From positions 35,139 through 99,138 of the IMG/VR virus record IMGVR_UViG_3300043449_001175: a stretch of 64,000 bases of DNA. The stretch is one strand, 5' to 3'. Under the pieces are notes generated by a model, which ran no database searches, had not been told where the DNA came from, and was given only the letters and a program-made list of their open reading frames with translations. This document shows, piece after piece, positions 16,117 through 64,000 of the stretch (its first letter is position 1; the number at the start of each line of letters is the position of its first letter). The position numbers and the translations under genes are program-made. The stretch is from a virus.

Positions 16117-19100
16117 ATGGCAGTATCAAATAAAGTATTCGTATCTCCTGGTGTTTATACATCAGAGAGAGACCTTAGCTTCGTAGCTCAAAGTGTGGGG
16201 GTAACCACTCTTGGTCTTGTTGGGGAGACATTAACAGGTCCGGCTTTCGAACCAATTTTTATCACAAACTATGATGATTTTGAATCATACTTTGGCGGAA
16301 CGATTCCCGAAAAATTCGTTAACACTCAAATTCCAAAATATGAGTTGGCATACATTGCAAAATCATATCTTCAACAATCTAACCAATTATTTGTAACAAG
16401 AGTGTTAGGTTTATCAGGTTATGATGCGGGTCCGTCTTGGTCAATCACGACAATTGCCAATGTTGACGGTAGTACTGTTGGTTTAAATCCATCAACAGGT
16501 TCAACATATAGTATTAACTTTACCGGTACTACTGGTGGAACTGAAATTACATACTCGACAACTTTCCCAAGTATTATTCAAACAGGTAATACTTACACAC
16601 AATATAATGGTGGTGTATCAACAATTAATACACAATTATATAATCAAATCCAAACAATCATTAATAACTCAGGAACTACTTCGGGAGATTCAGCTTACAT
16701 TTTTGGAACTGTAGCAGCGTCTGATTATGATTCGTTATTGTCAGGATATACTGCTCAGACAAACGTTTATAATGTATCAGGACTTTCTGAGTCTGATGCG
16801 GACTTTACATCACCAAGTGATGATACTTGGTATTATGCAAACTTTGATATTACAACAGGAGATGCTTACACAGGTTATTCTTTCTATAACGTAGTTTCAT
16901 CAATCACTACCGCAGGTTCAGGTGTTTATACTGGTACAATAACAGGTAAGACTTACTCATATTCAGGTACTGCATATGAAGGTTGGAATGACGTAGTTGT
17001 TGCAACTTTACGTTCAAGAGGTATTTCATTGTTTACAACTGACCTTCACGGTCCACAATATCAAATAACAGGAACAACTGATGTTATATTAGATAATTCA
17101 GGTTCTTACTCAGGAATTTCACAAAACCCATTTGCTCAATTTGCAATATCAGGTTATACTGACAATGCTGAAACACCAGCTTCATTCTCATTTGTTACTT
17201 CAATGAATAGTAATGACGCTAACTATATTACTAAGGTATTTGGTATATCTAACTTTGGTAAGAATAGAGTTGAGACTCCATTGTTTGTTGAAGAACAATT
17301 CCAAACAATGTTAACATACGGTTATAATAAAGGTTACGTTAGAGGTATTAATTCATCTTTGATTAGTTTACCAGGTTTAAGAAACCCTGTTACAACAAAT
17401 ACTATCGCTAACTACTTAGAACAATATAAATCACCTGAATCACCTTGGGTTGTATCACAACTTTATGGTTCAACAGTTGAGAGATTGTTTAAATTCTACT
17501 CAATTGCTGATGGTAACAGTGCAAACACTCAAATCAAAATTTCAATTCAAAACATTTCATTTAACAATTTAAGTTTTGATGTGGCGGTTCGTGATTTCTT
17601 CGATACTGATGCTAATCCAGTTATTTTGGAAAAATATACTAATTGTACTATGGACCCAACAACAAATAACTACATTGCGGTTAAGATTGGTACTAGTGAT
17701 GGTGAATACGCTTTGAATTCTAAATACATTATGTTGGAAATGGATGTTGATGCAAATCCTGAATCAGTACCTTGTGGTTTTGAAGGATATGTAATAAGAA
17801 ATTATGGTTCAGCAACTCCTCCATTCCCAGTTTATAAAGTGGCTTACAACTTCCCTGGTGAAGTAATTTATAACCCACCATTTGGTGTTGTTACTAACCC
17901 ACCATTCTCTTACACAGGTTTTGATAATAAAACTGTATCAGGTGGTGACAGAGTAAGAAGTACATATTTGGGTATTTCATCACAAATTGGTTATGACCCA
18001 TTATTCTTTGAATATAAAGGTAAACAAAAACCACTTGATTTATGTGTTGAAAGTGATGCACCATCTTGGAACTACGTAACTAAAGGTTTCCACATGGATT
18101 CAGGAGCAACTGTTGTAAGTATTGTAACAGGTCCAACATCTGGTTCACCAGCATTTGATTGTGGTGTTGCTTCATTCCAAAGAGACCCCGAAACTTCAGC
18201 AAACCCTTACTACCAAATTCAAGCAAGAAAATTCTCTTTCTTATTACAAGGTGGTTTTGACGGTTGGGATATCTACAACGAAAGTAGAACAAATACTGAT
18301 AGATTTATTTTAGGTGGTACTGGTTATCAAGCGGGAGCTTGTCCAACTACAAGATATCCTAACGCAACTGGTTGGGGAGCGTTTAAACCAATTGCAATCA
18401 GCAACTTCACTGACTTCGCAAATACTGATTACTACGCTTACTTGTTAGGTATTAACACATTCTCAAATCCTGAAGCGGTAAATATAAACGTATTTGCAAC
18501 ACCTGGTATTGACTATGTTAACAACTCAAACTTGGTTGAGGATTCTATTTCTATGGTAACATTTGATAGAGCGGATTCAATTTACATTTGTACAACACCT
18601 GATACTGCGATGTTTGCACCTGTAACAAATCCAGCTGATTTCATCTACCCAACTGAAGCGGTTGACAATTTAGATAACACAGGAATTGACTCTAACTACA
18701 CAGCAACTTACTACCCATGGATTTTGGTTAGAGATACTGTAAACAATACACAGATTTACATACCACCAACAAATGAAGTTTGTAGAAACTTGGCGTTGAC
18801 TGATAATATTTCATTCCCTTGGTTCGCAACTGCGGGTTACACAAGAGGTTTGGTAAATGCGGTTAAAGCACGTAAGAAACTTACACAAGAAGATAGAGAT
18901 ACTTTGTATCAAGGTAGAATTAACCCAATTGCAACTTTCTCTGATGTTGGAACTGTAATTTGGGGTAATAAAACATTACAAATTGCTGACACAGCACTTA
19001 ACAGAATTAACGTAAGAAGATTGTTATTACAAGCTCGTAAGTTAATTTCAGCGGTGGCGGTTAGATTGTTGTTTGAACAAAACGATGCTAAAGTAAGACA

Positions 19101-19311
19101 AGATTTCTTGGATTCTGTAAACCCAATCTTGGACGCAATCAGAAGAGACAGAGGTTTATATGACTTTAGAGTTACAGTTAGTAATTCACCTGAAGACTTA
19201 GATAGAAATACTATGACAGGTAAAATTTACTTGAAACCAACTAAAGCATTGGAATTTATCGACATTGAGTTCTTGATAACTCCAACAGGAGCGTCATTTG
19301 AAAATATTTAA
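16117..19311 (+). CDS. Contractile tail sheath protein with large Ser/Thr/Gly-rich insertion domains
   Basis: SPGVYTSERD N-terminus. C-terminal YYPW, PWFATAGYTRG, LYQGRINPI, IWGNKTL, RINVRRLL and LFEQND. Confidence 0.95.
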   Translation: MAVSNKVFVSPGVYTSERDLSFVAQSVGVTTLGLVGETLTGPAFEPIFITNYDDFESYFGGTIPEKFVNTQIPKYELAYIAKSYLQQSNQLFVTRVLGLSGYDAGPSWSITTIANVDGSTVGLNPSTGSTYSINFTGTTGGTEITYSTTFPSIIQTGNTYTQYNGGVSTINTQLYNQIQTIINNSGTTSGDSAYIFGTVAASDYDSLLSGYTAQTNVYNVSGLSESDADFTSPSDDTWYYANFDITTGDAYTGYSFYNVVSSITTAGSGVYTGTITGKTYSYSGTAYEGWNDVVVATLRSRGISLFTTDLHGPQYQITGTTDVILDNSGSYSGISQNPFAQFAISGYTDNAETPASFSFVTSMNSNDANYITKVFGISNFGKNRVETPLFVEEQFQTMLTYGYNKGYVRGINSSLISLPGLRNPVTTNTIANYLEQYKSPESPWVVSQLYGSTVERLFKFYSIADGNSANTQIKISIQNISFNNLSFDVAVRDFFDTDANPVILEKYTNCTMDPTTNNYIAVKIGTSDGEYALNSKYIMLEMDVDANPESVPCGFEGYVIRNYGSATPPFPVYKVAYNFPGEVIYNPPFGVVTNPPFSYTGFDNKTVSGGDRVRSTYLGISSQIGYDPLFFEYKGKQKPLDLCVESDAPSWNYVTKGFHMDSGATVVSIVTGPTSGSPAFDCGVASFQRDPETSANPYYQIQARKFSFLLQGGFDGWDIYNESRTNTDRFILGGTGYQAGACPTTRYPNATGWGAFKPIAISNFTDFANTDYYAYLLGINTFSNPEAVNINVFATPGIDYVNNSNLVEDSISMVTFDRADSIYICTTPDTAMFAPVTNPADFIYPTEAVDNLDNTGIDSNYTATYYPWILVRDTVNNTQIYIPPTNEVCRNLALTDNISFPWFATAGYTRGLVNAVKARKKLTQEDRDTLYQGRINPIATFSDVGTVIWGNKTLQIADTALNRINVRRLLLQARKLISAVAVRLLFEQNDAKVRQDFLDSVNPILDAIRRDRGLYDFRVTVSNSPEDLDRNTMTGKIYLKPTKALEFIDIEFLITPTGASFENI

Positions 19312-19318
19312 TATTTGA

Positions 19319-20155: not shown

Positions 20156-20209
20156 ACGATGATAATTTTTAAAAAATTAAAGTAAATACAAAAATTTTCA
20201 AACAACGTG

Positions 20210-20256: not shown

Positions 20257-20745
20257 ATGGCTGATTTATTAATGAAAATGCCGGTTCCTTACGAACCAAA
20301 AAGAGCGAACCGATTTATACTAAGGTTTGACACAAGTTTAGGTATTAATGAATGGTTCGTAGAATCATCAGGAAGACCAAGTATTGATATTAACCCTGTT
20401 GAGATACAATTTTTGAACACTTCTACATATGTAGCGGGTAGATTCAAATGGAATCCAATCTCAGTTAAATTCCGTGACCCAATTGGTCCATCAGCAACAC
20501 AAGCTCTTATGGAGTGGGTTCGTTTACACGCTGAATCAGTTACAGGTCGTATGGGATATGCTGCGGGTTATAAAAAGAATGTTGACCTTGAAATGTTGGA
20601 CCCAACAGGTGTTGTTGTGGAAAAATGGATTCTTGAGCAATGTATGATTACAAAATCCACTTGGGATAACGTATCATATAGTGATGACAAATTAGCAGGA
20701 TTAGACGTTACATTACAGATGGACCGTTGTATTTTGGTTTACTAA
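20257..20745 (+). CDS. Tail tube protein (T4 gp19-like)
   Basis: EPKRANRF, YVAGRFKWNPI, GYAAGYKK and LDPTGVVVEKW. 162 aa, downstream of the sheath. Confidence 0.9.
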   Translation: MADLLMKMPVPYEPKRANRFILRFDTSLGINEWFVESSGRPSIDINPVEIQFLNTSTYVAGRFKWNPISVKFRDPIGPSATQALMEWVRLHAESVTGRMGYAAGYKKNVDLEMLDPTGVVVEKWILEQCMITKSTWDNVSYSDDKLAGLDVTLQMDRCILVY

Positions 20746-43122: not shown

Positions 43123-43321
43123 GAAAGATATAAAAACATCTAATGAGGGGGAAAGTGAACAACTTTCCCCTTCTTCTTTTTATATTGAAAATGGAAAATA
43201 TGTCTTCACAAAAGAATTTCATTTAAGTCGTGGTTACTGTTGTGGAAATGGTTGTCGTCATTGTCCATATTTTCCTGCTCACAAAAAAGGGAATACAACT
43301 ATATTTATTGACAATGGCTGA
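43109..43321 (+). CDS. Small Cys-rich protein (DUF5522-like)
   Basis: FYIENGKYVFT...HLSRGYCCGNGCRHCPY. Start uncertain (GTG 43109). Confidence 0.65.
   Translation: MKLNKKDIKTSNEGESEQLSPSSFYIENGKYVFTKEFHLSRGYCCGNGCRHCPYFPAHKKGNTTIFIDNG
43145..43180 (+). terminator. Hairpin with T-rich tail downstream of nrdJ (inside the DUF5522-like ORF)
   Basis: GAGGGGGAAAGT-GAACA-ACTTTCCCCTTC followed by TTCTTTTT. Confidence 0.6.
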
Positions 43322-43775
43322 TGGTAAAACATATGGATTAACGTTTCCCTTTGTAGAATCGTATAATGGTAAGTATTTGGACCTTTCAGATTACCCTGCT
43401 GAAGAAATCAGGAGTAATTTGATTCACTTGTTATTAACAAGAAAAGGTACTAGATATTTTTTACCTGATTTTGGAACCGCATTATTGGAATACATTTTTG
43501 AACCATTAGATGGTCCAACATTTAAAAATATTGAATCTGAGATTAGAGATTCTGTTGAAAAATTCATGCCTCAGTTACAATTAACAAATATATCTATTAC
43601 GGCACCAACTGGTGAAGCGGCTGGAGCGACAGTAACAACTGCGGGGAATGTTGTTAATCCTGAATTACAAATGACGAATCAAGATGTAACGGAGTATACA
43701 GCCACGGTAAGAGTTGATTATTCTATAACTAATGATGTCTTTAATACAAAAGATTTTATAATACTAAATATTTAA
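43314..43775 (+). CDS. Baseplate wedge protein gp25-like (sheath initiator)
   Basis: GLTFPF and IRSNLIHLLLTRKGTRYFLPDFGT. Start reassigned to ATG 43314 (TATTTAT at 43302, 12-nt spacing). Confidence 0.85.
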   Translation: MADGKTYGLTFPFVESYNGKYLDLSDYPAEEIRSNLIHLLLTRKGTRYFLPDFGTALLEYIFEPLDGPTFKNIESEIRDSVEKFMPQLQLTNISITAPTGEAAGATVTTAGNVVNPELQMTNQDVTEYTATVRVDYSITNDVFNTKDFIILNI

Positions 43776-43780
43776 CATAA

Positions 43781-50751: not shown

Positions 50752-52442
50752 TGAGCGAAAGTAATTATTTAATAGTAAAACCTGACTTAAGATTTAAATC
50801 GGCTCCCGATTCGGACATAACTTTTGTCACAGAACTTAATCAAACGCAATCTGAGGTTGTTGATTATGATAGAACGGTTAACATTAACTTGGCAACTTTG
50901 TTTAATGTTGAAAGACAAAAATCTGTTATATTTAGACCAACAGTTAAATTATCTTACATTTATGAAAATGGTTTGGTTGGATATAGTAATTATAGACCAT
51001 TTAGAGATAATCTATATTATGTTAACCCTGAGCAATCGGTTATTAATGGTGTTTGGAGTGGATTACCAACATATGAAGAATTTGAATTTATTAGAACAGA
51101 TGTTGATTCAACACAATTAAATTTTGTTACAAAAAGTGCATCATCGTACAATTGGAATGTTGTTTTATCGTATCCATATGAAAATGATTATTCGGTACCA
51201 ATGCAATATTATTTTTCAAATGGTTTATCATTAACACCTTGGGTGTCAGGTGATGGAATACCATTTCAAATTTCACAAGGTACTGAGAACGGAACACCAT
51301 TAATCCAATTTACTTGTCCTGTTCCACACGGATTATCGGTTAATGAATATGTTGAATTATCTTTTGATTATAGTGGTGTTAATACATTTCAAGTTTCTTT
51401 CTTAGGTAATAACACACTTGGCTCTGATGAATACATTTTTAATATATATAATGTAGGATTTACAGGAACAACATTTAATAGTGGAAATCAAGGTGTCTTC
51501 AAAAGAATTATTGATATTAATAACTCAGGAGAAACAAAATCAAAGTACTACGTTAGATTACACAAAATTATTAGTAATCCACACGATTCAATTATTACAA
51601 GAAACGGATTTGAATTAAATCCATTTAATGATGGTGCTGCGTATCAATTTTCCTCTTTAACACCAAACAACGTTGGAAGGGTTGTTAATTATCAAAGTTC
51701 AAACACTTACAATATTACAATGGCTCGTGATTTGGAGATAACCAATCAGGTTGATAATAATAAAAAACCTGTAACACAAGTGTTCGCAACATTTCAAAAT
51801 GTTGGATACTTTGGTTGGTTTAACCAATTAAGAAAAGGTTGGGCGTTTAATATGACATCGAAAGAAACAAACCCATGGTGGTCAACAACAAATCCTACAT
51901 CTTTGGAGAACAATATAACATCAGGTTATACCAAAGTTCAAAGTGGTGATACGTATAATTTTACGGTTAACTTACCAAGATATAGTGGTGACACAATGTA
52001 TGGTGATTGGTGTGAATGGAACGAAAGTGACCAATCGGAGAGAGTTGTTTCAAACTATATGAACAAAATGACTTACTACCAAAAAGCGTTTGATATTGCA
52101 CCAACGGCATCCACAAATCCAAATGGTTTTTATTATCAAGTTCATTACCCAATTACTTTAAAAGTTTTTTCTGATTATCTTGAAACTGCTGAACAAAGTG
52201 GAACAATAGGAATTCCTTATTGGGCATACTTTAGTAATAATAACAAGTTATGGTTTTGGAGAGATATTTACGAATATGGTTATATAGATAATTTAGGTAG
52301 GGGTGTTGATTATCCGTATTTAAATAGTTCTCATTATCCTTTCCAAGATATTGTTTTTAGGTTGTATCCTGAAGGCGCGTCATTTGACATAACAGAATTG
52401 TACCAAATTGTACCAGACCCGATAATAGATGGATGCGAATAA
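50751..52442 (+). CDS. Putative virion structural protein
   Basis: TAATG-coupled in the tail operon. Asn/Thr/Tyr-rich with several [ST]GxT motifs. Confidence 0.55.
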   Translation: MSESNYLIVKPDLRFKSAPDSDITFVTELNQTQSEVVDYDRTVNINLATLFNVERQKSVIFRPTVKLSYIYENGLVGYSNYRPFRDNLYYVNPEQSVINGVWSGLPTYEEFEFIRTDVDSTQLNFVTKSASSYNWNVVLSYPYENDYSVPMQYYFSNGLSLTPWVSGDGIPFQISQGTENGTPLIQFTCPVPHGLSVNEYVELSFDYSGVNTFQVSFLGNNTLGSDEYIFNIYNVGFTGTTFNSGNQGVFKRIIDINNSGETKSKYYVRLHKIISNPHDSIITRNGFELNPFNDGAAYQFSSLTPNNVGRVVNYQSSNTYNITMARDLEITNQVDNNKKPVTQVFATFQNVGYFGWFNQLRKGWAFNMTSKETNPWWSTTNPTSLENNITSGYTKVQSGDTYNFTVNLPRYSGDTMYGDWCEWNESDQSERVVSNYMNKMTYYQKAFDIAPTASTNPNGFYYQVHYPITLKVFSDYLETAEQSGTIGIPYWAYFSNNNKLWFWRDIYEYGYIDNLGRGVDYPYLNSSHYPFQDIVFRLYPEGASFDITELYQIVPDPIIDGCE

Positions 52443-53202
52443 GATAAGAGTGTTGTTTAACAACCAACCAAAAGATTTGGTTATTCCTCTTCAACAAGAG
52501 TGGGACTTCTATGGTCAACAACAAGCCATTGAACAATATGAATCAACTATAATTGAAAAAATATTGAATCAAGGTGATGACTATGAGGTGACAAGGTTTG
52601 ACCATCAGTTGTATGATAATACAAAAAGTTCACTTAATTATGATTTCTACTTAAGAAACCCAACCAATAGGTTGTGGCAAAATTCTTATTTATCAAAATT
52701 TACAACAAACCAAATCTATTATTTTCAACAAGCGTTTACAAAATCTTTTTGGAAACTTGATTTTTATGATACTCCAACCACAAGAACACAAAAGTCTTAT
52801 TTTACTGTAATACTACCAGTACAACAAGGTAAATTCCAATCAGCCGTATTGAATAATACAACAAACGTTACAATCAAACGACCAAGTTATCAGTTAGACT
52901 ATATTGGTGATAAAGAAGGGTTTTTTCTTTATTGGTTAAAATCAAGACAATTCTTAAACATCAATACTTTTTATATGACGGCAAAATTCTTCAATGGTGC
53001 AACAGGTCAATTTATTAAGATGATGAAAGCACCGCAAAGTACTTTACCAAATTTCTTTGATTTCCCTGCTGAAGAATATTTTTATTATAAAGTTGATTTA
53101 GATTATATAACACAAACTTACCAAGTGTTTGATTATCCACTAGGTACAAGAGCCGGAACAACATCAAATCCGATAAAATGGTATGAATACGTAAACCCAT
53201 AA
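52429..53202 (+). CDS. Putative virion structural protein
   Basis: Overlap-coupled ORF in the tail operon. Confidence 0.55.
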   Translation: MDANKIRVLFNNQPKDLVIPLQQEWDFYGQQQAIEQYESTIIEKILNQGDDYEVTRFDHQLYDNTKSSLNYDFYLRNPTNRLWQNSYLSKFTTNQIYYFQQAFTKSFWKLDFYDTPTTRTQKSYFTVILPVQQGKFQSAVLNNTTNVTIKRPSYQLDYIGDKEGFFLYWLKSRQFLNINTFYMTAKFFNGATGQFIKMMKAPQSTLPNFFDFPAEEYFYYKVDLDYITQTYQVFDYPLGTRAGTTSNPIKWYEYVNP

Positions 53203-54281
53203 TGGATACACAAGTAATGAATATAAGGGTATCACCCGAAGTCTTGAATACAATCATTCACGATGTTACTTACTCAGGTGAAACATTTGGGGTGTATTCT
53301 TCTATGACCCAAACATTAACCAGTGGTATCAATAACACATCAAGTTTAACAGGTCTTACGGTCCCAATTCTATTAACACAAAATACAATTGATTTAGGAT
53401 ACTATTCTGTTTTTGATGGTGCTGTTTCACAAATAAATGTGGTAAACAATTTTATATTTTCATCCACAACTGGTAATCCGTTTACTTGGTATGTTTATAA
53501 TACTGCTGATGTTGAGTTTAATGCTTACCTTCAGTTGTCAACATATTTTTTGGATTGGGGGGATGGAACACCATTACAACCAATAAACACATACGCACCA
53601 AATTCTATTGTACACACTTATAATACAAACCCAAGTAAATATACAATAACTTTATTTCAAAATAATCCTTGGGGCAACACAACAGTTTCTAAAAATATTC
53701 AGACACCATATGTTGATGTGCCTGATTTTAATCCACAAGGAACAGCATACTTTACACCAAACGTTGGTTCTTGGAGTGCAACACCAATATCGTACAATTA
53801 TATTTTTACTGGTGATAGTGTTAATTTAGTTGAAGACCAAGTTTCATCGGCATATGTTTCAGTACCATTTACTGTTAGTGGATATACGGATTCAAGAATT
53901 AATGACTTGGCATTTTACGGAACACCAAAATTTAAATTATTAGTACCTGTTCAAAAAAATAATGTTGATTATGGTATTATAACCGATATTAATTTAGTTT
54001 ATACTGCATACACAATACAAAACATTGACTATGTTGATTTTGCAGACGGAACAACAATTTTCTTCCTTCAATCGTCAGGTTTAACTGAAAATTGGATGGT
54101 ACAAGAACCTTTAGTAAAAGATGAATTATTATTAGGAATAATTTCTCAAGCAGAAGTGCAATCCAATGTATTTATAGAAAGAGGTAAAAACTCGGCCTAT
54201 GAAAGAATACAAAGAATAGGTGAAGTAGATAACCTTGGAGATTTAATAAAATATGGATATTACTTTTTTAACGTAACATAA
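53202..54281 (+). CDS. Putative virion protein with a PKD-like domain
   Basis: YFLDWGDGT...HTY...YTITL PKD signature. Confidence 0.6.
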   Translation: MDTQVMNIRVSPEVLNTIIHDVTYSGETFGVYSSMTQTLTSGINNTSSLTGLTVPILLTQNTIDLGYYSVFDGAVSQINVVNNFIFSSTTGNPFTWYVYNTADVEFNAYLQLSTYFLDWGDGTPLQPINTYAPNSIVHTYNTNPSKYTITLFQNNPWGNTTVSKNIQTPYVDVPDFNPQGTAYFTPNVGSWSATPISYNYIFTGDSVNLVEDQVSSAYVSVPFTVSGYTDSRINDLAFYGTPKFKLLVPVQKNNVDYGIITDINLVYTAYTIQNIDYVDFADGTTIFFLQSSGLTENWMVQEPLVKDELLLGIISQAEVQSNVFIERGKNSAYERIQRIGEVDNLGDLIKYGYYFFNVT

Positions 54282-54282: not shown

Positions 54283-55191
54283 ATGGCAACTGGAACATAT
54301 GGAACTATAAGACCCGCTGATGTATCACCTGAAGATGTGAGTATCGTCATGAATTACACACCGTCAAGAGATGTAACGGACAATTTTGTCCTTACAACCT
54401 TGGACGCTACATCAATATTGAGACCTTATTTTAATAACGCAGCGACTGGCGGAAATTCAAATGAAATATTGGGTGGTTTGTATAATCTTAGATTACCTGC
54501 CGAAACGTTTACACAGTTGGGTATTTACACTCTTTATATAAGACCTGCAGAAATCAGAACAAGTATTACTGACTGTGGTGTTTTATCGGCATTACCAAAC
54601 GTAAAAGGTATTGTTATTGATTTGAGTAATGTACCTAGTCAATTTGTAAATAAATTTGTTGCTCAAGGTTTAGTTGGATTTAGAGTTGAATATTTAAATG
54701 CTGATGGTAGTAAAATACCAAATTTCTTTAGAATAGTTACTTCAAATTTTTATTGTGAACCTGTAATTCAAAATTTAACAAATACATTACAGAAAGCTGT
54801 AAGATACAGATATACGGAAGGTCAAACTAATTTAGTGTTTTGTACATTATCACCAAGTTCGTCACCAACAAACAAACCAAACGCCACTCCATATATTGGA
54901 CAACCAGCTCAAAATATTGTATTGTCAAATACGTTCTTCAACCCATTAATGTTAGAAGTACAAGTTTCTCAATACGACATTGATACATTGGGTATTGCTT
55001 TATATGGTAATCAAACTAAATCTATGGAGGATGGTATCTACACAATCTATGATGCTCAAAACAACATCTATCAACAGTTTAACTTGTATGAAATTAAAGA
55101 TGACTTTAATAACTTGTTGTATGAGGTTAAAGATAATAGAGGTACTAACATTGACTTCAGTAAAAGTTATCAAAATATTACAGCTCAATAA
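54283..55191 (+). CDS. Putative virion structural protein
   Basis: 302-aa ORF within the coupled tail operon. Confidence 0.55.
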   Translation: MATGTYGTIRPADVSPEDVSIVMNYTPSRDVTDNFVLTTLDATSILRPYFNNAATGGNSNEILGGLYNLRLPAETFTQLGIYTLYIRPAEIRTSITDCGVLSALPNVKGIVIDLSNVPSQFVNKFVAQGLVGFRVEYLNADGSKIPNFFRIVTSNFYCEPVIQNLTNTLQKAVRYRYTEGQTNLVFCTLSPSSSPTNKPNATPYIGQPAQNIVLSNTFFNPLMLEVQVSQYDIDTLGIALYGNQTKSMEDGIYTIYDAQNNIYQQFNLYEIKDDFNNLLYEVKDNRGTNIDFSKSYQNITAQ

Positions 55192-58148
55192 TGGCTAAAA
55201 CTTTCATACCAAACACAGCGGCTTCAGGTGCCGGAACACCCTTTGATAATATCGTAGGGTTACAAACTGTGCAAGGTGGTGGACTAACACAAGGTAATTT
55301 TGAATTTGATTTAGGAATATCGGAAAAAACAAATAGAACTTTTAATATTGGAACATTTCAAAATCCAGTGTCATTAGAAAATTTAGATTTAGATTCTATA
55401 AATGCCTCGAGAGAATTATTGGCAAAAGAATATAGGGTCTATCCAAATTATGATTTATCTGTTGTTACAAATTTCACAATATTTGGTTCTTTACAAAAAC
55501 GATTTGAGGTATCAATTCAAAAAATATTAAACTTTTTTCCTGCGGCGATTGAGGTTGATGCGATTTATTATGATTTTACATCAGGATTAACTGCTGAGAA
55601 TATTGTATACAGTCCAGTTCCAAATGAAACAGAATTTACAATTGATGTTGCTAGAATTAAGAATCCATTTAATATTGATTATTCTGTTAATTCGGTAATT
55701 AATCTTCAAAACAGAGAACAATTATTTTCACCGATTAGAGATTTAACAAATAGGTATAGAGATTATAGTTTATTTGTTAATGGTGTTGAATATCCAATTA
55801 TTGACTTAGACCCAACAACAACTTTAAATTCAGGAACTCTAAAAGTTATTGTTACGGGACAACCATTTGTTGGTGTTACTTCAACAGTTGATTCAATTTA
55901 TATTAAACCAAACACATATTACACTGAAAAAGGTTTTGCTGAAGATTTTGATGAGGTTGAAAAGTTTTTATTAAATAGATTGGCAACACCACCATACACG
56001 GCAACATTTAATGTTCCTGTTGAAACCGATTCGGGTGTTGTTGCAATACAAACATCAACAGTAACTTGGCCTAAAGATGGTCTTTGGAATTTAGATATAA
56101 GAACACCATTATTCACAACGTATCTTGAAAAGTTAAATGAAATTGCCGTTAATTTTGATTTGTTTAAAACAAACTTAATTACTCGTTTTTTAACAACAGA
56201 ATCGTTTTTAGAATTTGACACACCAGACCATAGAGTTGCTAAGGTTTTACAAATATATGGTAGAAGTTTTGACCAAGTAAAACAATTTATTGACGCTTTG
56301 GCGTATATGAATTCTGTTAACTACACACCTGGTAATGACATACCATCCATGTTATTAAAAAATCTTGCTCAAACTTTGGGTTGGAGTACAAACATATCAC
56401 CAATTACAAATGAAAACTTTTTAGATTCGGTTTATTCATCAACTGGTGTGACACAATATGCTGGATTTTCAAGAGAACTTACACCATCAGAATTAAATTA
56501 TCAATTTTATAGAAATTTAATATTAAACTCGGCATATCTTTTCAAATCTAAAGGAACAAGACGTTCAGTTGAATTTACATTAAGATTGGTTGGAGCTCCT
56601 GAAGCACTTGTTGAGTTTAATGAACACGTTTATGTTGCTGACCAAAGAATCAACATGAGACAATTTGGTGAACAATACGCTCAAATTACTGGTGGAACAT
56701 ATATTGAAAATGTAACTCAATTATCTGCGGGTGACACATATAGAATATATGGTCAAACATACACAGCCTTTACTTCATCAACAAACACTTTTTTTGTAGA
56801 CCAAATAATTGAAGATTATCCCGTTGATGAATTTGGATTTCCAAGAGCACCAATTGAAACTTCGGATTATTATTTTGAAAAAGGTGCTGGATGGTTTGAA
56901 TCAACACCACAACATAGAAGTCCACAAATTGTAAATCAAACAACTTCTGTTTTTACAGGTAATAGTCCAAATGTTCAAACAACTTTACAACCTTTTACTT
57001 ACGGACAAGAATATTTTAATAGGTTTAGAAATTTCCCATACATGAATTTGGGTTTTAATTTAAAACTTGTACCTGATAATAAAAAAAGTTGGCAACCACC
57101 TGTATATAGGGTTAGTGTTGAGTCAGGATACAATGCCTATTATGTAGTATCTGATGAAAGACTAGTACTTAATGCGAAAAATGTTGATTTGTTCATGAAC
57201 CCTGGACAAGGTATTCTTTATAATGTTTGGTCAATGTCCAAGAATTATAATTATCCAATTCCTAATTCAGGGATGACATCACCATACCCAAGTTTGGGAA
57301 CTTATGATTGGACATATATTAATCCTGAAGCAAACAAAAAAACATTCTTTGAATTTGCACAAACATTTGTTAACAATACAATTAATATTAGAGATAGGTG
57401 GTACTCAACAGATGGTAAAACAGGTGGATATCCAACACTATTAAATATTTTTTACAATTACCTTCTTTCTGAAGAAAATGTTGGAATTCCAAATGATAAT
57501 TTTACATATCAAAAATTAATTGAATATGTTGATGGTCTTGGTCCATATTGGATTAGATTAACTCAACAAATGATACCAGCCTCCACAATATGGAACACTG
57601 GTACTCGTTTAGAAAATTCAGCATTACAAAGACAAAAGTATGTCTACAGAAGACAACGAGGTTGTCAGTTAGTACAAATTGAAAATGACCCATGTTTGGC
57701 GACAAGTCAATTATTTACATTTGATTGTACTAGACAAAGTGCTACGTGTTCGATATATCCTTGGATTGGACCAAACCCTGGTGATGTTACATCATTCTCA
57801 CAAATACTATATAATGTCCTATACAATTATTTAGATACACAAGGTTATCTTCTATCAGATTGTAATGCGAATTCATTATACTCCCAATGGTATGTGGATG
57901 TTAAAATTGATGGTGTTACTGTTATTCAAAATAAATTCTTTGATGGTTATGGTACAGGACAAGTTCCAACAAATAACCAATGGAAAACAGCACTTATTTT
58001 GAATCTACAACAATTAATTGACGATGGTTATTTCTTTTATGTGAACGGTAATTCGGTTACAATTTATAACTTGAATTGTGTGTCAAGTTCAGAACCAATT
58101 ACGTTACAAATAAACGTTGGTATTAATATAGACATTAGTTGTCAGTAA
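55191..58148 (+). CDS. Baseplate/tail-fibre attachment protein with a P2 gpI/T4 gp7-like segment
   Basis: LKNLAQTLGW...YLFKSKGTRRSVEFTLRLVG motif. Confidence 0.6.
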   Translation: MAKTFIPNTAASGAGTPFDNIVGLQTVQGGGLTQGNFEFDLGISEKTNRTFNIGTFQNPVSLENLDLDSINASRELLAKEYRVYPNYDLSVVTNFTIFGSLQKRFEVSIQKILNFFPAAIEVDAIYYDFTSGLTAENIVYSPVPNETEFTIDVARIKNPFNIDYSVNSVINLQNREQLFSPIRDLTNRYRDYSLFVNGVEYPIIDLDPTTTLNSGTLKVIVTGQPFVGVTSTVDSIYIKPNTYYTEKGFAEDFDEVEKFLLNRLATPPYTATFNVPVETDSGVVAIQTSTVTWPKDGLWNLDIRTPLFTTYLEKLNEIAVNFDLFKTNLITRFLTTESFLEFDTPDHRVAKVLQIYGRSFDQVKQFIDALAYMNSVNYTPGNDIPSMLLKNLAQTLGWSTNISPITNENFLDSVYSSTGVTQYAGFSRELTPSELNYQFYRNLILNSAYLFKSKGTRRSVEFTLRLVGAPEALVEFNEHVYVADQRINMRQFGEQYAQITGGTYIENVTQLSAGDTYRIYGQTYTAFTSSTNTFFVDQIIEDYPVDEFGFPRAPIETSDYYFEKGAGWFESTPQHRSPQIVNQTTSVFTGNSPNVQTTLQPFTYGQEYFNRFRNFPYMNLGFNLKLVPDNKKSWQPPVYRVSVESGYNAYYVVSDERLVLNAKNVDLFMNPGQGILYNVWSMSKNYNYPIPNSGMTSPYPSLGTYDWTYINPEANKKTFFEFAQTFVNNTINIRDRWYSTDGKTGGYPTLLNIFYNYLLSEENVGIPNDNFTYQKLIEYVDGLGPYWIRLTQQMIPASTIWNTGTRLENSALQRQKYVYRRQRGCQLVQIENDPCLATSQLFTFDCTRQSATCSIYPWIGPNPGDVTSFSQILYNVLYNYLDTQGYLLSDCNANSLYSQWYVDVKIDGVTVIQNKFFDGYGTGQVPTNNQWKTALILNLQQLIDDGYFFYVNGNSVTIYNLNCVSSSEPITLQINVGINIDISCQ

Positions 58149-58175: not shown

Positions 58176-60914
58176 ATGGCGTTAGTAAATAAATTATTTC
58201 AAAATTGTTTCAATTATACAGGAGATACAATTTATAAAACATTTACAATTGATGATGCTAGTGGATGGACAACAACACAAAGTTACGTTATTTATAGTGG
58301 TGATGGAGCTTGTTATGTTTACTTGGGTACTACTTTGGGTAGTCCAGTATCAACATATCTATCACCTACTGGAACAAATGTTAGTGGTGCTTGTAATTCA
58401 TCAACAGGATGTCCGTCAGTTAACACCAACATGTACCCAAACAATTTGTTTTACACGTTTTCGGCGTGTTGTGATGGGTCAACATTTAGTTTTAGACGTG
58501 GTGACATTGAATTGGGTTCCGATTATGTTAATGGTACGACAATGGCTCTTAGTTATGTTGGGACTGGTGGTACTTTTAATGGTTGTGCAACTGTAATCAC
58601 AGGATATACCGGTTCAACAATATATACCGACAATAATTGTACTTTTAGTTATTTATCAACATTCTCGGATTGTTCTGATTGTGAAATATATTCTCCTTGC
58701 CCAACACCAACTACAACACCAACACCAACTACAACACCAACACCAACTATAACTCCAACACCAACTATAACTCCAACACAAATACCGCCAAGTCCAACAC
58801 CAACCTCAACACCATTTAATAATGGTAATACTTTTGCATATACGATAACAGTAACGGGCGCTTGTGAGACTGGAATTGGTGCGGCATTACTCACCGCAAG
58901 TGGTGGTACTCCACCATATACGTTTGATTGGTACAATCCTAATTTAGGTACTGGACCGTATAAATCAAACTTATCTGCCGGTACATATTTTGTTAGAGCT
59001 AATGATTCAACAGCACCAACAAATAATGAATTTTTTATTAATGTTGTTATTGGTTCTGGTTTGACAATAGGATTTCAAAGTGAAATTGCAACAACATGTG
59101 GATTAAATAATGGTTCATTAACAGTAACTGCAGAATCAAGTTGTAATGTAATTAATTATTATTTATATTCGGCTTATGGATTTGTTGATTCTCAAACAAA
59201 CTCAACAAATATTGCGACATTTGATAATTTATCTGCGGGTACTTATTCAGTAACTGCGATTGATTGTGGTGGTTGTTCAGGAACTTCAGAAACATGTATT
59301 ATATATTCATCAAACACTCTTGATTATGGATTTTATATTGTAAATGATACTGAATGTGCTAGTCCGACAGGAAAGGTATACGTTACTGGTGTTACAGGTA
59401 ACTCACCATTTACTTATGAGTGGTCTAATGGTGTAACAGGTGATACTATTACAGGATTAACAGCTGGTGGTTATGGAGTTACAGTAACATCATCGGATGG
59501 TTGTGTTTTATCTAAAGTTGCCACGGTTGATTTTGTTCCAAGTATTGGGTTAGGTTCATGGACTGCGGTTACACCATCTTGTTTTGTTGCTGATGGTTCA
59601 TTAACATTAACAATAACGGGAGGAACAGGTCCTTATTATTATTCAGGTTCAAATGGTACCGTAGCAATAACATATGCGACTTCATATGTATTTTCAGGTT
59701 TATCTTCAGGACCATTCTCTGTTGATATTACCGATGCTGCTTTATGTAAAGCAACATTCTCAACCGTATTACAAACGCCAAACACATTTAATAGTTTAGA
59801 TGTAACAACAACAAATTCTAATTGTAGTAGTAATGATGGAAAGATATCAATCACTTTGGATGGTGGACAAATACCGTACACATATACTTTAGTTTATCCT
59901 GATTCATCTGTTGTTAATGCGGTTTCAAATTCAACCGCATATGATTTTGTTAATCTTGAAAGTGGAACTTACACTGTATATGTTTCTGATAATACAAGTT
60001 GTGTTTACCAAGAAGAAACAACAATTATCGCTGAAAATTTATATACTGTAACAACAACAAGTACGGGTTCAACATGTAATTTGTCTAATGGTAGTGTTAC
60101 ATTGGTATTATCAACAGGTGGAACCGCACCATATACATATCAATTAAGTACCGGACAATCATTAAATACTAGTTTTAGTGCTGCTACATTTGGGGGATTA
60201 TCAACAGGAACTTATGTTTATAGTGTAACGGATGCTACAGGATGTGTCCAAACAGGAAGTGTTAGTGTGTCATTTGGTACACCATTACAATACTCTTTAT
60301 ACCCAACAGGATGTGGTACGGGTTCAGGTGGAACAATTACTGCTTTAATTAGTTCAGGTACACCACCATTTACGTTTACTTGGTCTGATAATATTAGTGG
60401 TAATCCTCAAAACATTGTCGTAACTGGTCTTACGGGTGGAACATATAGTTTAACAATTGTGGATGCTTCAGGATGTACTCAAACAAGAAATACGGTTATT
60501 AGTTGTACGGCAATTGAATCTACATATCAAATTTATACGATGTGTGAGAGAGAATTTGAATATACGTCAGGTACTGAAAGAGGAATTCTTCAAATGTTAA
60601 ATGAAGGTTATAATGATATTATTTCTGGTCACACAAATTGTTTATTAAGTGCTGCGACATTTGTTGCTCAAGTTGAGGTTAGTGGTACGACATATACCGA
60701 TTCATTTTACACTGGTACCACACTATTAGACATCCCAACAAATCAACAATGGTATGATGCTGTTGAAACATTATTATTATCAATACCCGGTGTTAGTAGT
60801 GTTACAATTGATACTACATCAAGTGTTGTAACAATAGCAACAGAAGGTGAATTAGCAAACCAACAAATAATAATTGACCTGATAATTCAATATGACATTA
60901 ATTGTGTGAGTTAA
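58176..60914 (+). CDS. Fibre/adhesin-like virion protein with a Pro-Thr linker and tandem SprB-like repeats
   Basis: Repeated SGGTPPYTFDW / TGNSPFTYEWSNG / GGTAPYTYQL ... L-x-x-G-x-Y-x-V-x-x-x-D-x-x-GC units. TATTTAA at 58164. Confidence 0.7.
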   Translation: MALVNKLFQNCFNYTGDTIYKTFTIDDASGWTTTQSYVIYSGDGACYVYLGTTLGSPVSTYLSPTGTNVSGACNSSTGCPSVNTNMYPNNLFYTFSACCDGSTFSFRRGDIELGSDYVNGTTMALSYVGTGGTFNGCATVITGYTGSTIYTDNNCTFSYLSTFSDCSDCEIYSPCPTPTTTPTPTTTPTPTITPTPTITPTQIPPSPTPTSTPFNNGNTFAYTITVTGACETGIGAALLTASGGTPPYTFDWYNPNLGTGPYKSNLSAGTYFVRANDSTAPTNNEFFINVVIGSGLTIGFQSEIATTCGLNNGSLTVTAESSCNVINYYLYSAYGFVDSQTNSTNIATFDNLSAGTYSVTAIDCGGCSGTSETCIIYSSNTLDYGFYIVNDTECASPTGKVYVTGVTGNSPFTYEWSNGVTGDTITGLTAGGYGVTVTSSDGCVLSKVATVDFVPSIGLGSWTAVTPSCFVADGSLTLTITGGTGPYYYSGSNGTVAITYATSYVFSGLSSGPFSVDITDAALCKATFSTVLQTPNTFNSLDVTTTNSNCSSNDGKISITLDGGQIPYTYTLVYPDSSVVNAVSNSTAYDFVNLESGTYTVYVSDNTSCVYQEETTIIAENLYTVTTTSTGSTCNLSNGSVTLVLSTGGTAPYTYQLSTGQSLNTSFSAATFGGLSTGTYVYSVTDATGCVQTGSVSVSFGTPLQYSLYPTGCGTGSGGTITALISSGTPPFTFTWSDNISGNPQNIVVTGLTGGTYSLTIVDASGCTQTRNTVISCTAIESTYQIYTMCEREFEYTSGTERGILQMLNEGYNDIISGHTNCLLSAATFVAQVEVSGTTYTDSFYTGTTLLDIPTNQQWYDAVETLLLSIPGVSSVTIDTTSSVVTIATEGELANQQIIIDLIIQYDINCVS
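58701..58779 (+). repeat. 18-nt tandem repeat, about 4 copies, encoding PTPTTT/PTPTIT
   Basis: CCAACACCAACTACAACA x2 followed by CCAACACCAACTATAACT x2. Confidence 0.9.
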
Positions 60915-60915
60915 T

Positions 60916-61218
60916 ATGGCAATGATTGAAATAATATCGATTACAGGTACTTCACCATATCAGGTGTATGTGTCAGATGTATATGGTAATAATCAAACTT
61001 TTGTTGGAACAATTTCAGGGTCAGTACCACCTGTTGAAAATTTTTATTTACCAACAATATTTGATAACGCACCAGCAATCATGTTAACAATAACTGATTC
61101 CGATGGATGTTCTAAATTCAAAATACTTGAATGTATTTATGGTTGTGGATTCGCAATTCAAATTGTTGCAAGTGATTGTATTTTTACAATTGCATTTGAA
61201 CCACCAAACAATCCTTAA
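60916..61218 (+). CDS. Small virion-associated beta protein
   Basis: ITGTSPYQVYV...ITDSDGC resembles a single degenerate SprB-like unit. Confidence 0.5.
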   Translation: MAMIEIISITGTSPYQVYVSDVYGNNQTFVGTISGSVPPVENFYLPTIFDNAPAIMLTITDSDGCSKFKILECIYGCGFAIQIVASDCIFTIAFEPPNNP

Positions 61219-61295
61219 ATAAGTTAGTGTAATTTTAGGACTAATATTCTAAAAAGTACAAACTCATTGTATTTATTAAGAAATTAATTCTATAG

Positions 61296-62288
61296 ATGGC
61301 AGAAATTTATGATATTATTGTGGTTAATGAAGCGAGCGGTTGTCAAAACGCTGTAACCAATCAATATACCATTACAGGTTGTAATCAAACAGTCCTTGTT
61401 AAATTTGACGGGACAAACAATGCTGTTGGACCATTTGACATCTATACGGGTAGTACTGGAACAACGGCTGTATATACAGGTGTTACAAGAACTGAAATGA
61501 TATATGGTGTTGTATTAACACTTACAGACCCATCAGCATTTTGTGGTACACCAACACCTACACCTACTCCAACAATAACACCATCTTCGGTAACACCAAC
61601 ACCTACACCAACATCAACAGTTACACCCACACCATCGGTTACTATTGGTATTACACCAACACCTACATCTACAACAACACCAACACCGACACCTTCAATC
61701 ACACCATCAAGCACACCGTCAGTTGGAACTGCTTATCTATTTATTGAACCTCAATCTGGTTCAACCAACATTGGTCAATATATGTTTGATGGTGGATATA
61801 ATTTCTATGGGTTTACAAACTTATCGGGACCTGATACCTCGTCACAAGTCCTCTTTAGTAATGATATGAATGGATACGTATCATTTACAGGTTGGACTGG
61901 TGGTGTTTTCCCAACAGTTAGGACACAATCGGTCCCACAAGTAAGTGGTGGTGTTGATGCTTACGGTAATAGTATTGTTGCTTACAATTTTACAACACAT
62001 GAGGTACCAGTGAATACAGTTTCAAATCAAGCTTGGTACACTTGGATTATTCCAACAGGTGCAACTAATAACTTAATACAATATCAAATTGATGTTGATT
62101 CTTTTGGTAATCCAAATTCTATGACAACATTAACTATGGATTCAACAATATACACAAAAACATTTAATTACACTGGTTCAACAATTCCTACAGGCGTTTA
62201 TAGAGTTTATACAACATTTGCAGATTTATCGTTTTATTTAGATAATGGTGGAAACACAATTTATTTCAGAGGTAATTCAGTAATATAA
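61296..62288 (+). CDS. Virion protein: small N-terminal domain, Pro-Thr linker, and C-terminal domain paralogous to ORF 3-869
   Basis: ~55-aa TPTP linker and AYLFIEPQSGST...YFRGNSVI domain. TATTTAT at 61270. Confidence 0.7.
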   Translation: MAEIYDIIVVNEASGCQNAVTNQYTITGCNQTVLVKFDGTNNAVGPFDIYTGSTGTTAVYTGVTRTEMIYGVVLTLTDPSAFCGTPTPTPTPTITPSSVTPTPTPTSTVTPTPSVTIGITPTPTSTTTPTPTPSITPSSTPSVGTAYLFIEPQSGSTNIGQYMFDGGYNFYGFTNLSGPDTSSQVLFSNDMNGYVSFTGWTGGVFPTVRTQSVPQVSGGVDAYGNSIVAYNFTTHEVPVNTVSNQAWYTWIIPTGATNNLIQYQIDVDSFGNPNSMTTLTMDSTIYTKTFNYTGSTIPTGVYRVYTTFADLSFYLDNGGNTIYFRGNSVI

Positions 62289-62311
62289 AGATTAAATGAT
62301 ATTTAATAATA

Positions 62312-64000
62312 ATGAGCAATTTAGACTATACTAATCCAATAACATCTAATCAATTATCTTCACAACAATCGGTTGTAAAAAATTCGGTTTTTGGTGTTAC
62401 TTTTTCAGTTTTAAATTCAGGTGGGTACATGGAAGTGTACAATTTGTCTGATTTACAATTTGTGTACACTGGTGGTACAGGTCTAATTACAGGGTCAACA
62501 ATTCCAATTCAATTTAACAAAGGTATTAATAATACGTTTAGTCCTGATGTATTAACTTTAAGTAATGATTTAATTACTTCAGGAAGAAGAAGATTGGGAA
62601 TGCTTGCTTATGTTCAAGAAACAGGTTTAATATACCAATTTACAGTACCAAACTACGATTATTTATGGTCTGCAGTTACTGCACAAACAGGAACATCAGC
62701 CGTTACTTATACCGATTACTCAACATTAGTTAATAATCGTTCACAAGCAGGTCAAGATTTTATTAATGTTTGGACAGCATCAACAATTGATGGTTATAAC
62801 GCTCCTTGGAGTGGTGCAACATGGAGAGTTTTACCAGGTTCATATCCAGCCATTACAGGAGGAACATATAACTCAGGAACAACTACATTAGAATTATTTA
62901 ATTCAACAGGTGGAACAATATCTATAAGTGGATTTACATCAGGAGGTGGGGGTAGTCCTTTAACTGTTGACGGCATTTCGAATGTCACTAACATTACATT
63001 TAGCGGTGCTTCAGTTGTTGATGATGGTGGTGGTGCAATTACGGTGGTTATTAGTGGTGGTACGGGAACTTCAGGTACTAGTGGTACATCAGGAACATCA
63101 GGTTCAAGTGGTACATCAGGTGAATCAGGAACTAGCGGTACTTCAGGAACATCAGGTGAATCAGGAACTAGCGGTACTTCAGGTGAGTCAGGAACTAGCG
63201 GTACATCAGGTGAGTCAGGAACTAGTGGTACATCAGGTGAGTCAGGAACAAGTGGAACATCAGGAACTTCAGGTGAGTCAGGAACTAGTGGTACTTCAGG
63301 AACTTCAGGTGAATCAGGAACTAGCGGTACTTCAGGAACATCAGGTGAGTCAGGAACTAGTGGTACTTCAGGTACATCAGGTGAATCAGGAACTAGCGGT
63401 ACTTCAGGAACCAACGGTACTTCAGGAACATCAGGTGAATCAGGAACTAGTGGTACATCAGGTGAATCAGGAACTAGCGGTACATCAGGAACTAGTGGTA
63501 CATCAGGTGAATCAGGAACTAGCGGTACATCAGGAACTAGTGGTACATCAGGTGAATCAGGAACTAGCGGTACTTCAGGAACATCAGGTGAATCAGGAAC
63601 TAGCGGTACATCAGGAACTAGCGGTACTTCAGGAACATCAGGTGAATCAGGAACTAGCGGTACATCAGGAACATCAGGTGAATCAGGAACTAGCGGTACA
63701 TCAGGAACTAGCGGTACTTCAGGAACATCAGGTGAATCAGGAACTAGTGGTACATCAGGTGAATCAGGAACTAGCGGTACATCAGGAACTAGTGGTACAT
63801 CAGGTGAATCAGGAACTAGCGGTACTTCAGGAACTAGTGGTACATCAGGTGAATCAGGAACTAGCGGTACTTCAGGAACTAGCGGTACATCAGGAACATC
63901 AGGTTCAAGTGGTTCTTCAGGATTGAGTGGTGTAGATGGAACATCAGGTTCAAGTGGCACATCAGGTGAATCAGGAACTAGCGGTACTTCAGGAACATCA
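62312..64000 (+). CDS. Fibre/decoration protein with a long Gly-Thr-Ser/Gly-Glu-Ser triplet repeat, 3'-truncated by the window edge (missing from the ORF track)
   Basis: ATG 62312 (TATTTAA at 62300, 12-nt spacing). The frame reads [12 protein letters not shown]...[10 protein letters not shown]...[14 protein letters not shown] and is open to the window end. Confidence 0.85.
63065..64000 (+). repeat. 9-nt-unit coding tandem repeat (about 100 Gly-X-Ser triplets)
   Basis: Units GGAACTAGC/GGAACTAGT/GGTACATCA/GGTACTTCA/GGAACATCA/GGTGAATCA arranged in higher-order blocks. Confidence 0.95.

Follow-up and report, generated by a model that had tools for sequence, protein, structure and literature searches.

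A short Ser/Thr-Gly-x-Thr motif is enriched on peripheral virion proteins in a lineage of uncultured freshwater phages

Among the closest described counterparts of the system considered here is the virion O-glycosylation of mycobacteriophages, tailed phages with glycosyltransferase (GT) genes of their own (Freeman et al. 2023, summarised in PMC12619734); as that summary presents it, the glycans sit at the C-termini of capsid and tail-tube subunits. Among other viruses, enveloped viruses carry glycan shields with shifting N-glycan sequons, and the capsid of chlorovirus PBCV-1 is glycosylated by virus-encoded enzymes (reviewed in PMC9614988). In this study we examine a 64,000-nucleotide stretch of DNA, the window, which lies at the end of one viral contig of 99,138 bp from an uncultured freshwater phage (IMG/VR record IMGVR_UViG_3300043449_001175, positions 35,139 to 99,138). 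A first-pass annotation of this stretch had picked out the tetrapeptide [Ser/Thr]-Gly-x-Thr as concentrated in exposed virion proteins and had proposed it as a recognition sequon for a phage enzyme, plausibly one of the window's GT cluster. To our knowledge, no internal tetrapeptide tag is known for virion O-glycosylation in mycobacteriophages. As in that system, a tailed phage has its own GT genes, and exposed targets and a glycan coat are proposed; in contrast, the tail tube here has no copies of the motif, and the sites at which a glycan would be attached are turns in the interior of the chain, spread over a dozen proteins. We find that the observation stands, more firmly than the annotation could show, and that its interpretation is partly supported: the motif looks selected, surface-restricted and distinct from the host-type sequon, and the adjacent GT cassette is probably the wrong suspect.

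The motif is strongly over-represented in the outer virion proteins. In 13 such proteins, three of them encoded outside the window, it occurs 96 times where 22 copies are expected from 25-residue local shuffles. The outer proteins of the window alone hold 77 copies against 18-19 expected, a total reached in no shuffle, whether the blocks were of 15, 25 or 50 residues. Such blocks preserve local composition, and the excess therefore survives composition-matched shuffling; expectations given for single proteins are from whole-protein shuffles. Among all 8,000 patterns of the form A-B-x-C, TGxT ranked first (51 copies against 10.5, P = 3e-19) and SGxT third (34 against 7.8, P = 4e-12), the place between them being taken by Pro/Thr low-complexity patterns only. 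The earlier counts, made by hand, were all reproduced within one copy.

Each position of the motif is specific. At the position after [ST]-G-x (203 cases), Thr is found 77 times against 21 expected, and Ser 18 times against 17. Thr follows at +2 from the Gly in 43% of cases when Thr precedes the Gly and in 31% when Ser does, compared with 8-15% for Asp, Asn or Gly. Pattern counts over the virion proteins gave no excess for Asp or Asn at position 1, nor for Ser or Asn at position 2, where Ala is a partial substitute for Gly (2.15-fold). The preceding residue (-1) is hydrophobic in 59% of copies against a background of 35%, the full pattern hydrophobic-[ST]-G-x-T is found 60 times against 8.3 expected (7.3-fold), and Pro is excluded at x and at +4. 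At -1, Asp stands in only three of the 77 copies; the Asp required by the Bacteroidota sequon D-[ST]-[AILVMT] is thus generally absent, and the two motifs are distinct, as the first-pass annotation had argued.

Codon usage within the motif equals that of the background, which rules out a DNA-level cause and places the cause at the level of protein. One might suspect an artefact, whether of composition, of low complexity, of repeats or of a post-hoc choice of motif, given the abundance of Ser, Thr and Gly in the carrier proteins, the original choice of the motif by eye, and the somewhat raised level of related Ser/Thr patterns in the sheath family. Composition is ruled out by the local shuffles of 15-50 residues, none of which reached the observed total, and by the first rank among 8,000 patterns; the same excess recurs in five further contigs and their orthologs, and the motif is absent from the low-complexity regions of collagen-like and Pro/Thr type. 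We consider an artefact scarcely credible. The excess is a protein-level signal beyond Ser/Thr/Gly composition, and it is confined to peripheral virion proteins.

This confinement is seen both within and between proteins (Table 1; genes are numbered by their first window position). In the tail sheath, nine copies lie at residues 127-348, in the insertion, and none in the Pfam sheath core at residues 776-1052, the distribution reported earlier. The approximately 20 copies reported for 58176 are likewise there. As to the other outer proteins that had been named, 45697, 50751, 53202, 55191, 61296 and the N-terminal part of 62312 are enriched, whereas 23600 (five copies against 1.9, p ~0.05) and 28769 (four against 1.9, p = 0.14) are not clearly so; 14721 has one copy. 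Over its full length, 62312 shows no enrichment, since the collagen-like part raises the number of copies expected; it is the last open reading frame (ORF), and it runs off the contig end within a collagen-like G-T-S tract (PF01391, E = 2e-45). Eight core virion proteins (19319, 20257, 20813, 21733, 43230, 43781, 52429 and 54283) together hold one copy against 1.9 expected, which is the chance level; a fourfold excess, approximately that of the outer proteins, would mean about 7.5 copies. Thus the outer proteins carry the excess and the core proteins do not. Also in agreement with the earlier counts, there are no copies in polB (6610), the nrdJ-like gene (41263), dnaB (39851), the SNF2 gene (12397), the four GT genes or the tube (20257), and one each in the RecA-like gene (37326), the exonuclease (38347) and the putative tape measure 21733.

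Inheritance through shared domains was considered as a source of the copies and rejected: among the 13 carriers there is a single BLAST-detectable homology, and SprB repeats cover only part of 58176. The SprB match of that protein amounts to 90 bits overall, above the curated cut-off, in five stretches of which three exceed 28 bits, and by our reading of the contexts the repeat consensus [ST]GGT.PY accounts for roughly 6-8 of the 20 copies. Pfam and PHROGs gave no match for most of the carrier proteins or for the fibre repeats of the relative G009 described below, and sequence searches of the PDB with four carrier proteins gave none.

The motif excess is lineage-specific. Taken genome-wide, the ratio of observed to expected copies is 3.25 in this contig, 2.69 in relative G001 (92% sheath identity), 2.49 in G002 (70%) and, in a clade at 61-66%, 2.93 in G009, 2.49 in G007 and 1.46 in G006. 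The corresponding values are 0.99 for Microcystis phage Mel-JY01, 1.35 for LR756508 (229 kb of sequence), 1.04 for Xanthomonas phage XacN1, 1.05 and 1.77 for two regions of T4, 1.04 for Cellulophaga phage phi14:2 and 1.24 for phi17:2. The T4 virion genes together have 17 copies against 12 expected, with a mild excess in gp37, gp36 and gp24 and no copy in the sheath, and the five other control genomes each have at most one mildly enriched ORF. T4, XacN1, Mel-JY01 and LR756508 rule out a general property of myovirus or jumbo-phage structural proteins, and phi14:2 and phi17:2, which are Bacteroidota phages with equally AT-rich genomes, rule out an effect of host phylum or base composition. A 647-residue ORF of phi17:2 (63475-65418) has six copies against 0.8 (P = 2e-4) in a genome that is at chance overall; the motif may be in occasional structural use in fibres elsewhere. 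A bacterial comparison is provided by the nearest, and only, bacterial relative found for 58176, a 2,178-residue SprB-repeat protein from a Saprospiraceae metagenome-assembled genome (JAYTNA010000268.1; 31% identity over residues 230-788). With similar Ser/Thr/Gly content it has 13 copies against 7.3, of which 9-10 are the repeat consensus [ST]GGT.PY.Y.W; outside that consensus this protein shows no excess.

Within the lineage, the sites come and go. In sheath orthologs of 61-66% identity the flanks are kept while the motif is replaced, ITGTTD by VSNLNN or VTNINN and MDSGATVV by MDKNASSI or MDKDASVI, and one distant sheath ortholog has no copies; the fold therefore does not need the motif. Comparison of nine ortholog pairs (47-88% identity) gave 38 sites in common and 54 specific to one lineage, where chance would give at most 25, and the proteins that carry the excess differ between sublineages. 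In the distant clade, a Cys-rich stretch of the sheath insertion occupies the place where this phage has TGST (G006:C1:36696-40037; G009:C1:49820-53185).

The structural position of the motif was approached with AlphaFold models, as the first-pass annotation had suggested. Mapping failed for the full-length sheath, whose model was poor (pLDDT 44), and was practicable for the 182-residue tip domain shared by 61296 and the 942-residue virion protein (41 sequences, pLDDT 70, pTM 0.71), a beta-sandwich in which the sites lie at turns or in low-pLDDT loops. At sites 106 and 145 (pLDDT 81-87) the motif sets in just where a beta-strand stops and makes up the turn that follows, as judged from secondary structure, not coordinates: strand 98-105 is followed by TGAT, and strand 141-144 by TGST, a loop and strand 152-158. 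Two other sites are the most conserved, being kept in 36-37 of the 41 homologs, and the model gives their loops a pLDDT of less than 50, a value that flexible loops at the surface could produce. Searches with the tip model returned generic beta-sandwich matches only (Foldseek E > 0.06; VIA Z up to 4.5) and no convincing solved relative.

The tip domain bears on a further explanation, in which the motif has another surface function, its Thr hydroxyls forming arrays that bind host polysaccharide, mucus or other ligands, or the motif serving as a tag for a different modification or an assembly chaperone. The restriction of the motif to receptor-facing and decorative proteins would fit such a role, as would weak tip-domain matches to carbohydrate-binding-module-like beta-sandwiches (Z up to 4.5) and the loop position of the best-conserved tip sites, a possible interface or pocket. 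However, these fold matches are below the tool's quoted noise level, and receptor binding is not the role of the sheath or of the capsid insertion, where the motif is also found. We regard this explanation as improbable.

Fibres of the relative G009 add a second structural context. Several of them consist of short periodic repeats with the motif as their conserved core, for example LPL-SGGT-V-TGDT and NLxV-TGNT, at spacings of 5, 7, 11, 16 and 22 residues; one fibre of 855 residues has 38 copies against 6.4 expected. Together with the strand-end sites of the tip domain, these repeats identify the motif as a turn element. Its position at turns keeps alive a purely structural account, according to which nothing reads the motif: it would be a preferred strand exit or turn in which Ser or Thr caps the turn, Gly supplies flexibility and Thr starts the next strand, and its excess would stem from multiplied beta-sandwich, SprB and fibre modules whose shared ancestry is too old for BLAST, plus convergence on a good turn. 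This account draws on the strand-end start of both confidently modelled tip sites, the hydrophobic preference at -1 and the exclusion of Pro, the exchange of Gly for Asn or Asp at orthologous motif positions, the 38 sites shared in position between diverged orthologs, and the place of the motif in the core of the periodic fibre repeats and of the SprB repeat in the bacterial protein. The mild excesses in the three T4 proteins and in the phi17:2 ORF point the same way.

A good turn should, however, be common elsewhere, and here the two parts of the first-pass annotation's own alternative, a structural beta-turn equally common in unrelated phages, diverge: the motif does lie at strand exits and turns, but the control genomes outside T4 stand at 0.99-1.35, and the six control phages and the non-consensus part of the bacterial adhesin are at chance. 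Asp and Asn, the usual capping equivalents of Ser and Thr, are not enriched at position 1, and Ser is not accepted at position 4. The same sites tolerate other sequences, and the carrier contexts lack detectable homology. The fibre repeats themselves point away from a plain turn. In three unrelated phages the generic fibre repeat reads AGGTITGPL, NGDTLSGGL and LGDTVTGLS, none of which matches the motif, whereas the G009 repeat, [ST]GGTV[ST]G[DN]T, begins with Ser or Thr in seven of nine copies, ends with Thr in eight of nine, and matches in both halves; the generic repeat thus appears to have been retuned at two positions to fit the motif in this lineage. A common fibre repeat of the form SGGTMTG was considered as a carrier of the motif and dismissed, since P2 gpH and the ORM_20 fibre have no copies and the generic repeat has other residues at the key positions. 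Indifference of the fold, turnover of sites with the excess retained, and the apparent retuning of the repeat suggest that the motif is more than a turn element. We nevertheless give the purely structural account substantial weight, as somewhat less probable than not.

If the motif is read, the first candidates are the four GT genes at the start of the window, which lie directly downstream of a motif-rich virion gene (Table 1). In a concrete form of the original proposal, the GT60 enzyme of gene 977, with 2240, 2964 and 3838, would use the Ser/Thr of [ST]GxT to start a glycan and then extend it. All 10 related contigs tested retain the GT60 gene, and characterised members of this family are polypeptide Ser/Thr/hydroxyproline GlcNAc transferases. 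However, among cultured phages 977 has homologs only in XacN1, Xoo-sp13, CM1 and RAS14 (44-47% identity); 3838 matches the same four phages over its full length (41%), and 2964 matches the two Xanthomonas phages among them, the identities across the cassette ranging from 30 to 47% in these Xanthomonas and Stenotrophomonas jumbo phages. In XacN1, ORF334, ORF332 and ORF330 stand together (216153-229496) in the same order as 977, 2964 and 3838, which identifies these three genes as a conserved cassette, and the order holds in Xoo-sp13, CM1 and RAS14. Yet XacN1 has 83 copies of the motif against 80 expected and no enriched ORF. We therefore regard it as very unlikely that the motif is the sequon of this cluster: the specific, selected-looking and surface-restricted signal stands, and its link to the adjacent cassette does not.

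What XacN1 does share with the lineage is long (V/I/S)-T-P-T-P-T linkers, borne in both by proteins of virion size. The seven cassette-bearing genomes have 4, 4, 8, 5, 5, 4 and 15 ORFs with such linkers (15 in XacN1, four in this contig and 4-8 each in G001, G002, G009, G006 and G007), a co-occurrence that covers two independent lineages only, whereas none was found in the 71-210 ORFs of each of the cassette-free T4, Mel-JY01, LR756508, phi14:2 and phi17:2. On this contig they occur in the 942-residue protein, in 58176, in 61296 and in a 467-residue protein encoded outside the window beside the major head gene (L001:5261-6664, + strand). Characterised GT60 enzymes add GlcNAc to Thr in Thr/Pro-rich, mucin-like sequence, or to hydroxyproline. 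Since the cassette is present in XacN1 with linkers and without an excess of the motif, it is likelier to act on the linkers, and from these gene comparisons it probably glycosylates the Pro/Thr linkers, not the motif. The 467-residue protein is 33% Thr, with approximately 300 residues of T-E/N-T-P-T repeats ahead of a Gly-rich C-terminal domain; [ST]GxT is absent where three copies are expected, and the protein looks like a mucin-like capsid fibre. The G006 sheath is positive in the Pro/Thr-linker test and has no [ST]GxT copies.

We also considered the cluster as a DNA-hypermodification system. TAGT is a TET-associated DNA glycosyltransferase family, known from systems that combine TET/5mYOX enzymes, methyltransferases and GTs (10.1101/2023.12.21.572611), and the C-terminal half of 3838 matches it below threshold (22 bits against a cut-off of 27.5). 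The contig, about one third of the genome, has no TET/JBP dioxygenase or DNA C5-methyltransferase, only a PhyH-type dioxygenase and sugar or small-molecule methyltransferases, and hence gives this idea no support. Searches of cultured phages with the other GTs of the genome gave generic GT2 fragments or nothing.

We tentatively favour an explanation in which the motif serves as a recognition tag for a different factor of this lineage, the likeliest being a transferase outside the cassette. The tag, hydrophobic-[Ser/Thr]-[Gly or, more rarely, Ala]-x-Thr, would be a short surface element placed many times over at the strand exits and turns of peripheral virion domains, among them the tip domains, the insertions of sheath and capsid, and the repeats of fibre and SprB type. 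The leading candidate for the reader would be an O-glycosyltransferase of the phage that works on virion proteins in the cytoplasm, during or after their folding, and builds a glycan coat. It would probably be an enzyme other than the cassette at 977-5511, whose likelier substrates would be the Pro/Thr linkers of the same proteins. In a fuller form, of which we are more doubtful, two cytoplasmic virus-encoded O-glycosylation routes would run side by side, the GT60 cassette on linkers and a lineage enzyme on hydrophobic-[ST]-[G/A]-x-T, with sites that shift like those of a glycan shield. The contig has a sugar toolkit: beside the GT60, GT25 and HtrL-like enzymes, a glycan-synthesis block on its left arm, outside the window, encodes GT11, GT2 enzymes (several here, three or more on the contig), a UDP-sugar dehydrogenase, WbqC, a DegT aminotransferase, a CmcI-like sugar O-methyltransferase and the PhyH dioxygenase.

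Several results weigh against a tag of this kind. The phage enzymes have about 5 copies against about 5.5 expected (summed per protein), and thus do not avoid the motif. The hydrophobic residue at -1, the strand-end position, the exchange of Gly for Asn or Asp, and membership in the SprB and fibre consensus are all expected of a plain turn, and the outgroup for the fibre repeat consists of three proteins only. The excess of site turnover is modest (2.15-fold against about 1.6-fold for control patterns), the control patterns [ST]G.S, [ST]GT and [ST]A.T are also 2.4-2.9-fold over expectation in the sheath family alignment, and conservation at motif sites (0.52) is not clearly better than at control sites (0.27-0.55). 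The cassette, whose genes were the only GTs with an informative unrelated lineage for comparison, does not, as XacN1 shows, travel with the motif, and within the lineage all members keep both GTs and motif. A relative in which the motif and a GT had disappeared together was looked for and not found: where the sheath has only 0-3 copies, GT60 is still present in the genome and other proteins still show the excess.

The phage is a distant T4-like myovirus. The contig's CheckV completeness of approximately 34% makes it probably a jumbo phage of about 300 kb. In the window, Pfam identifies the sheath (16117), tube (20257), gp25-like (43230) and baseplate-J-like (43781) genes, and elsewhere on the contig or in the window gp32, RecA-like, DnaB, ribonucleotide reductase (RNR), PolB-region, SNF2 helicase and superoxide dismutase genes; a prohead protease and the major head protein are on the left arm. 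Roughly ten GTs are encoded in total. No cultured phage is close, the best sheath matches being 30-36% identical, whereas IMG/VR holds more than 500 relatives (513-593 hits). The Saprospiraceae relative of 58176 fits a Bacteroidota host, and is a hint as to which group the host belongs to, or where the phage's repeat module came from. Freshwater 'moraphages' have Bacteroidota hosts and four core GT orthogroups (2025 paper, PMC12619734), and the contig may be a candidate member of that group. A 514-residue protein at 10802-12346 (- strand) contains an Fe/Mn superoxide dismutase domain (residues 40-228) and about 280 residues without a Pfam match. IMG/VR classes G009 (IMGVR_UViG_3300031857_024884, 203 kb) as a provirus and the other relatives as linear.

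Table 1. Carriers of the motif, comparison proteins and GT genes, with window positions unless marked as genome positions
Feature	Position	Strand	Motif copies (observed vs expected)	Remarks
942-aa virion protein (C-terminal 288 aa in window)	3..869; genome 33179-36007	+	13 vs 1.8	Pro/Thr linker; tip domain paralogous to 61296
GT60-type glycosyltransferase	977..2224	+	0	PF11397, E 1.1e-67, 229 bits vs cut-off 21; first cassette gene
GT25-family glycosyltransferase	2240..2974	+		Not found in XacN1
Cassette gene without Pfam family	2964..3845	+		Homolog of XacN1 ORF332
Two-domain HtrL_YibB + weak TAGT-like transferase	3838..5511	+		41% identical over full length to XacN1 ORF330
Tail sheath, 1064 aa	16117..19311	+	11 vs 1.8	
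Sheath insertion, aa 127-349	16495..17163	+	9 of the 11 sheath copies	Sites 139, 318, 345 conserved in close clade
Tail tube (gp19-like)	20257..20745	+	0	Example of non-enriched core
gp25-like and baseplate-J-like core baseplate proteins	43230..45622	+	0	
1684-aa virion protein	45697..50751	+	8 vs 1.4	Distant-clade orthologs not enriched
563-aa virion protein	50751..52442	+	5 vs 0.5	G002 ortholog 7 vs 0.3
359-aa virion protein	53202..54281	+	4 vs 0.5	Orthologs enriched in every relative, 8-9 vs 0.5-1.1
985-aa virion protein	55191..58148	+	4 vs 0.9	
912-aa protein	58176..60914	+	20 vs 4.8	Five SprB repeats (PF13573) and Pro/Thr linker
330-aa protein	61296..62288	+	7 vs 1.7	Small N-domain, Pro/Thr linker, 182-aa beta-sandwich tip domain (61740-62285)
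Protein with motif-rich N-terminal 250 aa, then collagen-like repeats	62312..64000	+	7 vs 1.2 in first 250 aa	
494-aa protein, outside window	genome 8515-9999		6 vs 0.7	

Were the motif the target of such a glycosyltransferase, bacteriophages would have in it their first defined O-glycosylation sequon. If an enzyme does read it, it would offer a sequence-defined handle on virion glycosylation, with sites predictable from metagenomes and glycan coats mappable over hundreds of uncultured aquatic phages, and an enzyme-tag pair reusable for site-specific glycosylation in the bacterial cytoplasm. Were it purely structural, it would be a cautionary case, showing that exposed proteins can bear a sharply defined, lineage-specific peptide signal without being modified there. 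The GT60 cassette and the Pro/Thr linkers form a proposed enzyme-substrate pairing that is directly testable in XacN1, Xoo-sp13, CM1 and RAS14; these phages can be grown, and mass spectrometry of their virions is therefore feasible now. Literature searches for the tetrapeptide or for the fibre-repeat strings returned no relevant report.

Comparison with known systems places the two candidate targets differently. The GT60 enzymes of Dictyostelium and Trypanosoma (PF11397) resemble this locus in the match of 977 and in the mucin-type Thr/Pro linkers of at least four phage virion proteins. The characterised members come from eukaryotes and modify Thr/Pro-rich runs or hydroxyproline, a choice of acceptor that suits the linkers as substrates of the cassette and does not suit [ST]GxT. 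The SprB repeat of Bacteroidota gliding-motility adhesins is present five times in 58176 and has the motif within its consensus, but the bacterial protein has no excess beyond that consensus, whereas the phage proteins do. Similarly, the fibres of G009 share the frame LPL.GGT.TG.. with the generic repeat x-G-[GD]-T-x-[ST]-G-x-L of P2 gpH, T4 gp37 and Ochrobactrum phage ORM_20; in those three unrelated phages its first position is Ala, Asn or Leu and its last Leu or Ser, whereas both halves of the lineage's repeat match the motif. With the Bacteroidota O-glycosylation sequon the motif has in common the likely host phylum and Ser/Thr as would-be acceptor, and differs in a -1 residue that is typically hydrophobic and rarely Asp. 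Bacteroidota O-glycosylation acts outside the cytoplasm, and phage particles assemble inside. The glycan shields of enveloped viruses and the PBCV-1 capsid offer a parallel, that of exposed viral proteins with an excess of a short motif whose sites appear and disappear from one relative to the next; those glycans are N-linked and shown by experiment, whereas for the phage motif a glycan is proposed, and its excess of turnover is modest, at 2.15-fold against the 1.6-fold or so of its controls.

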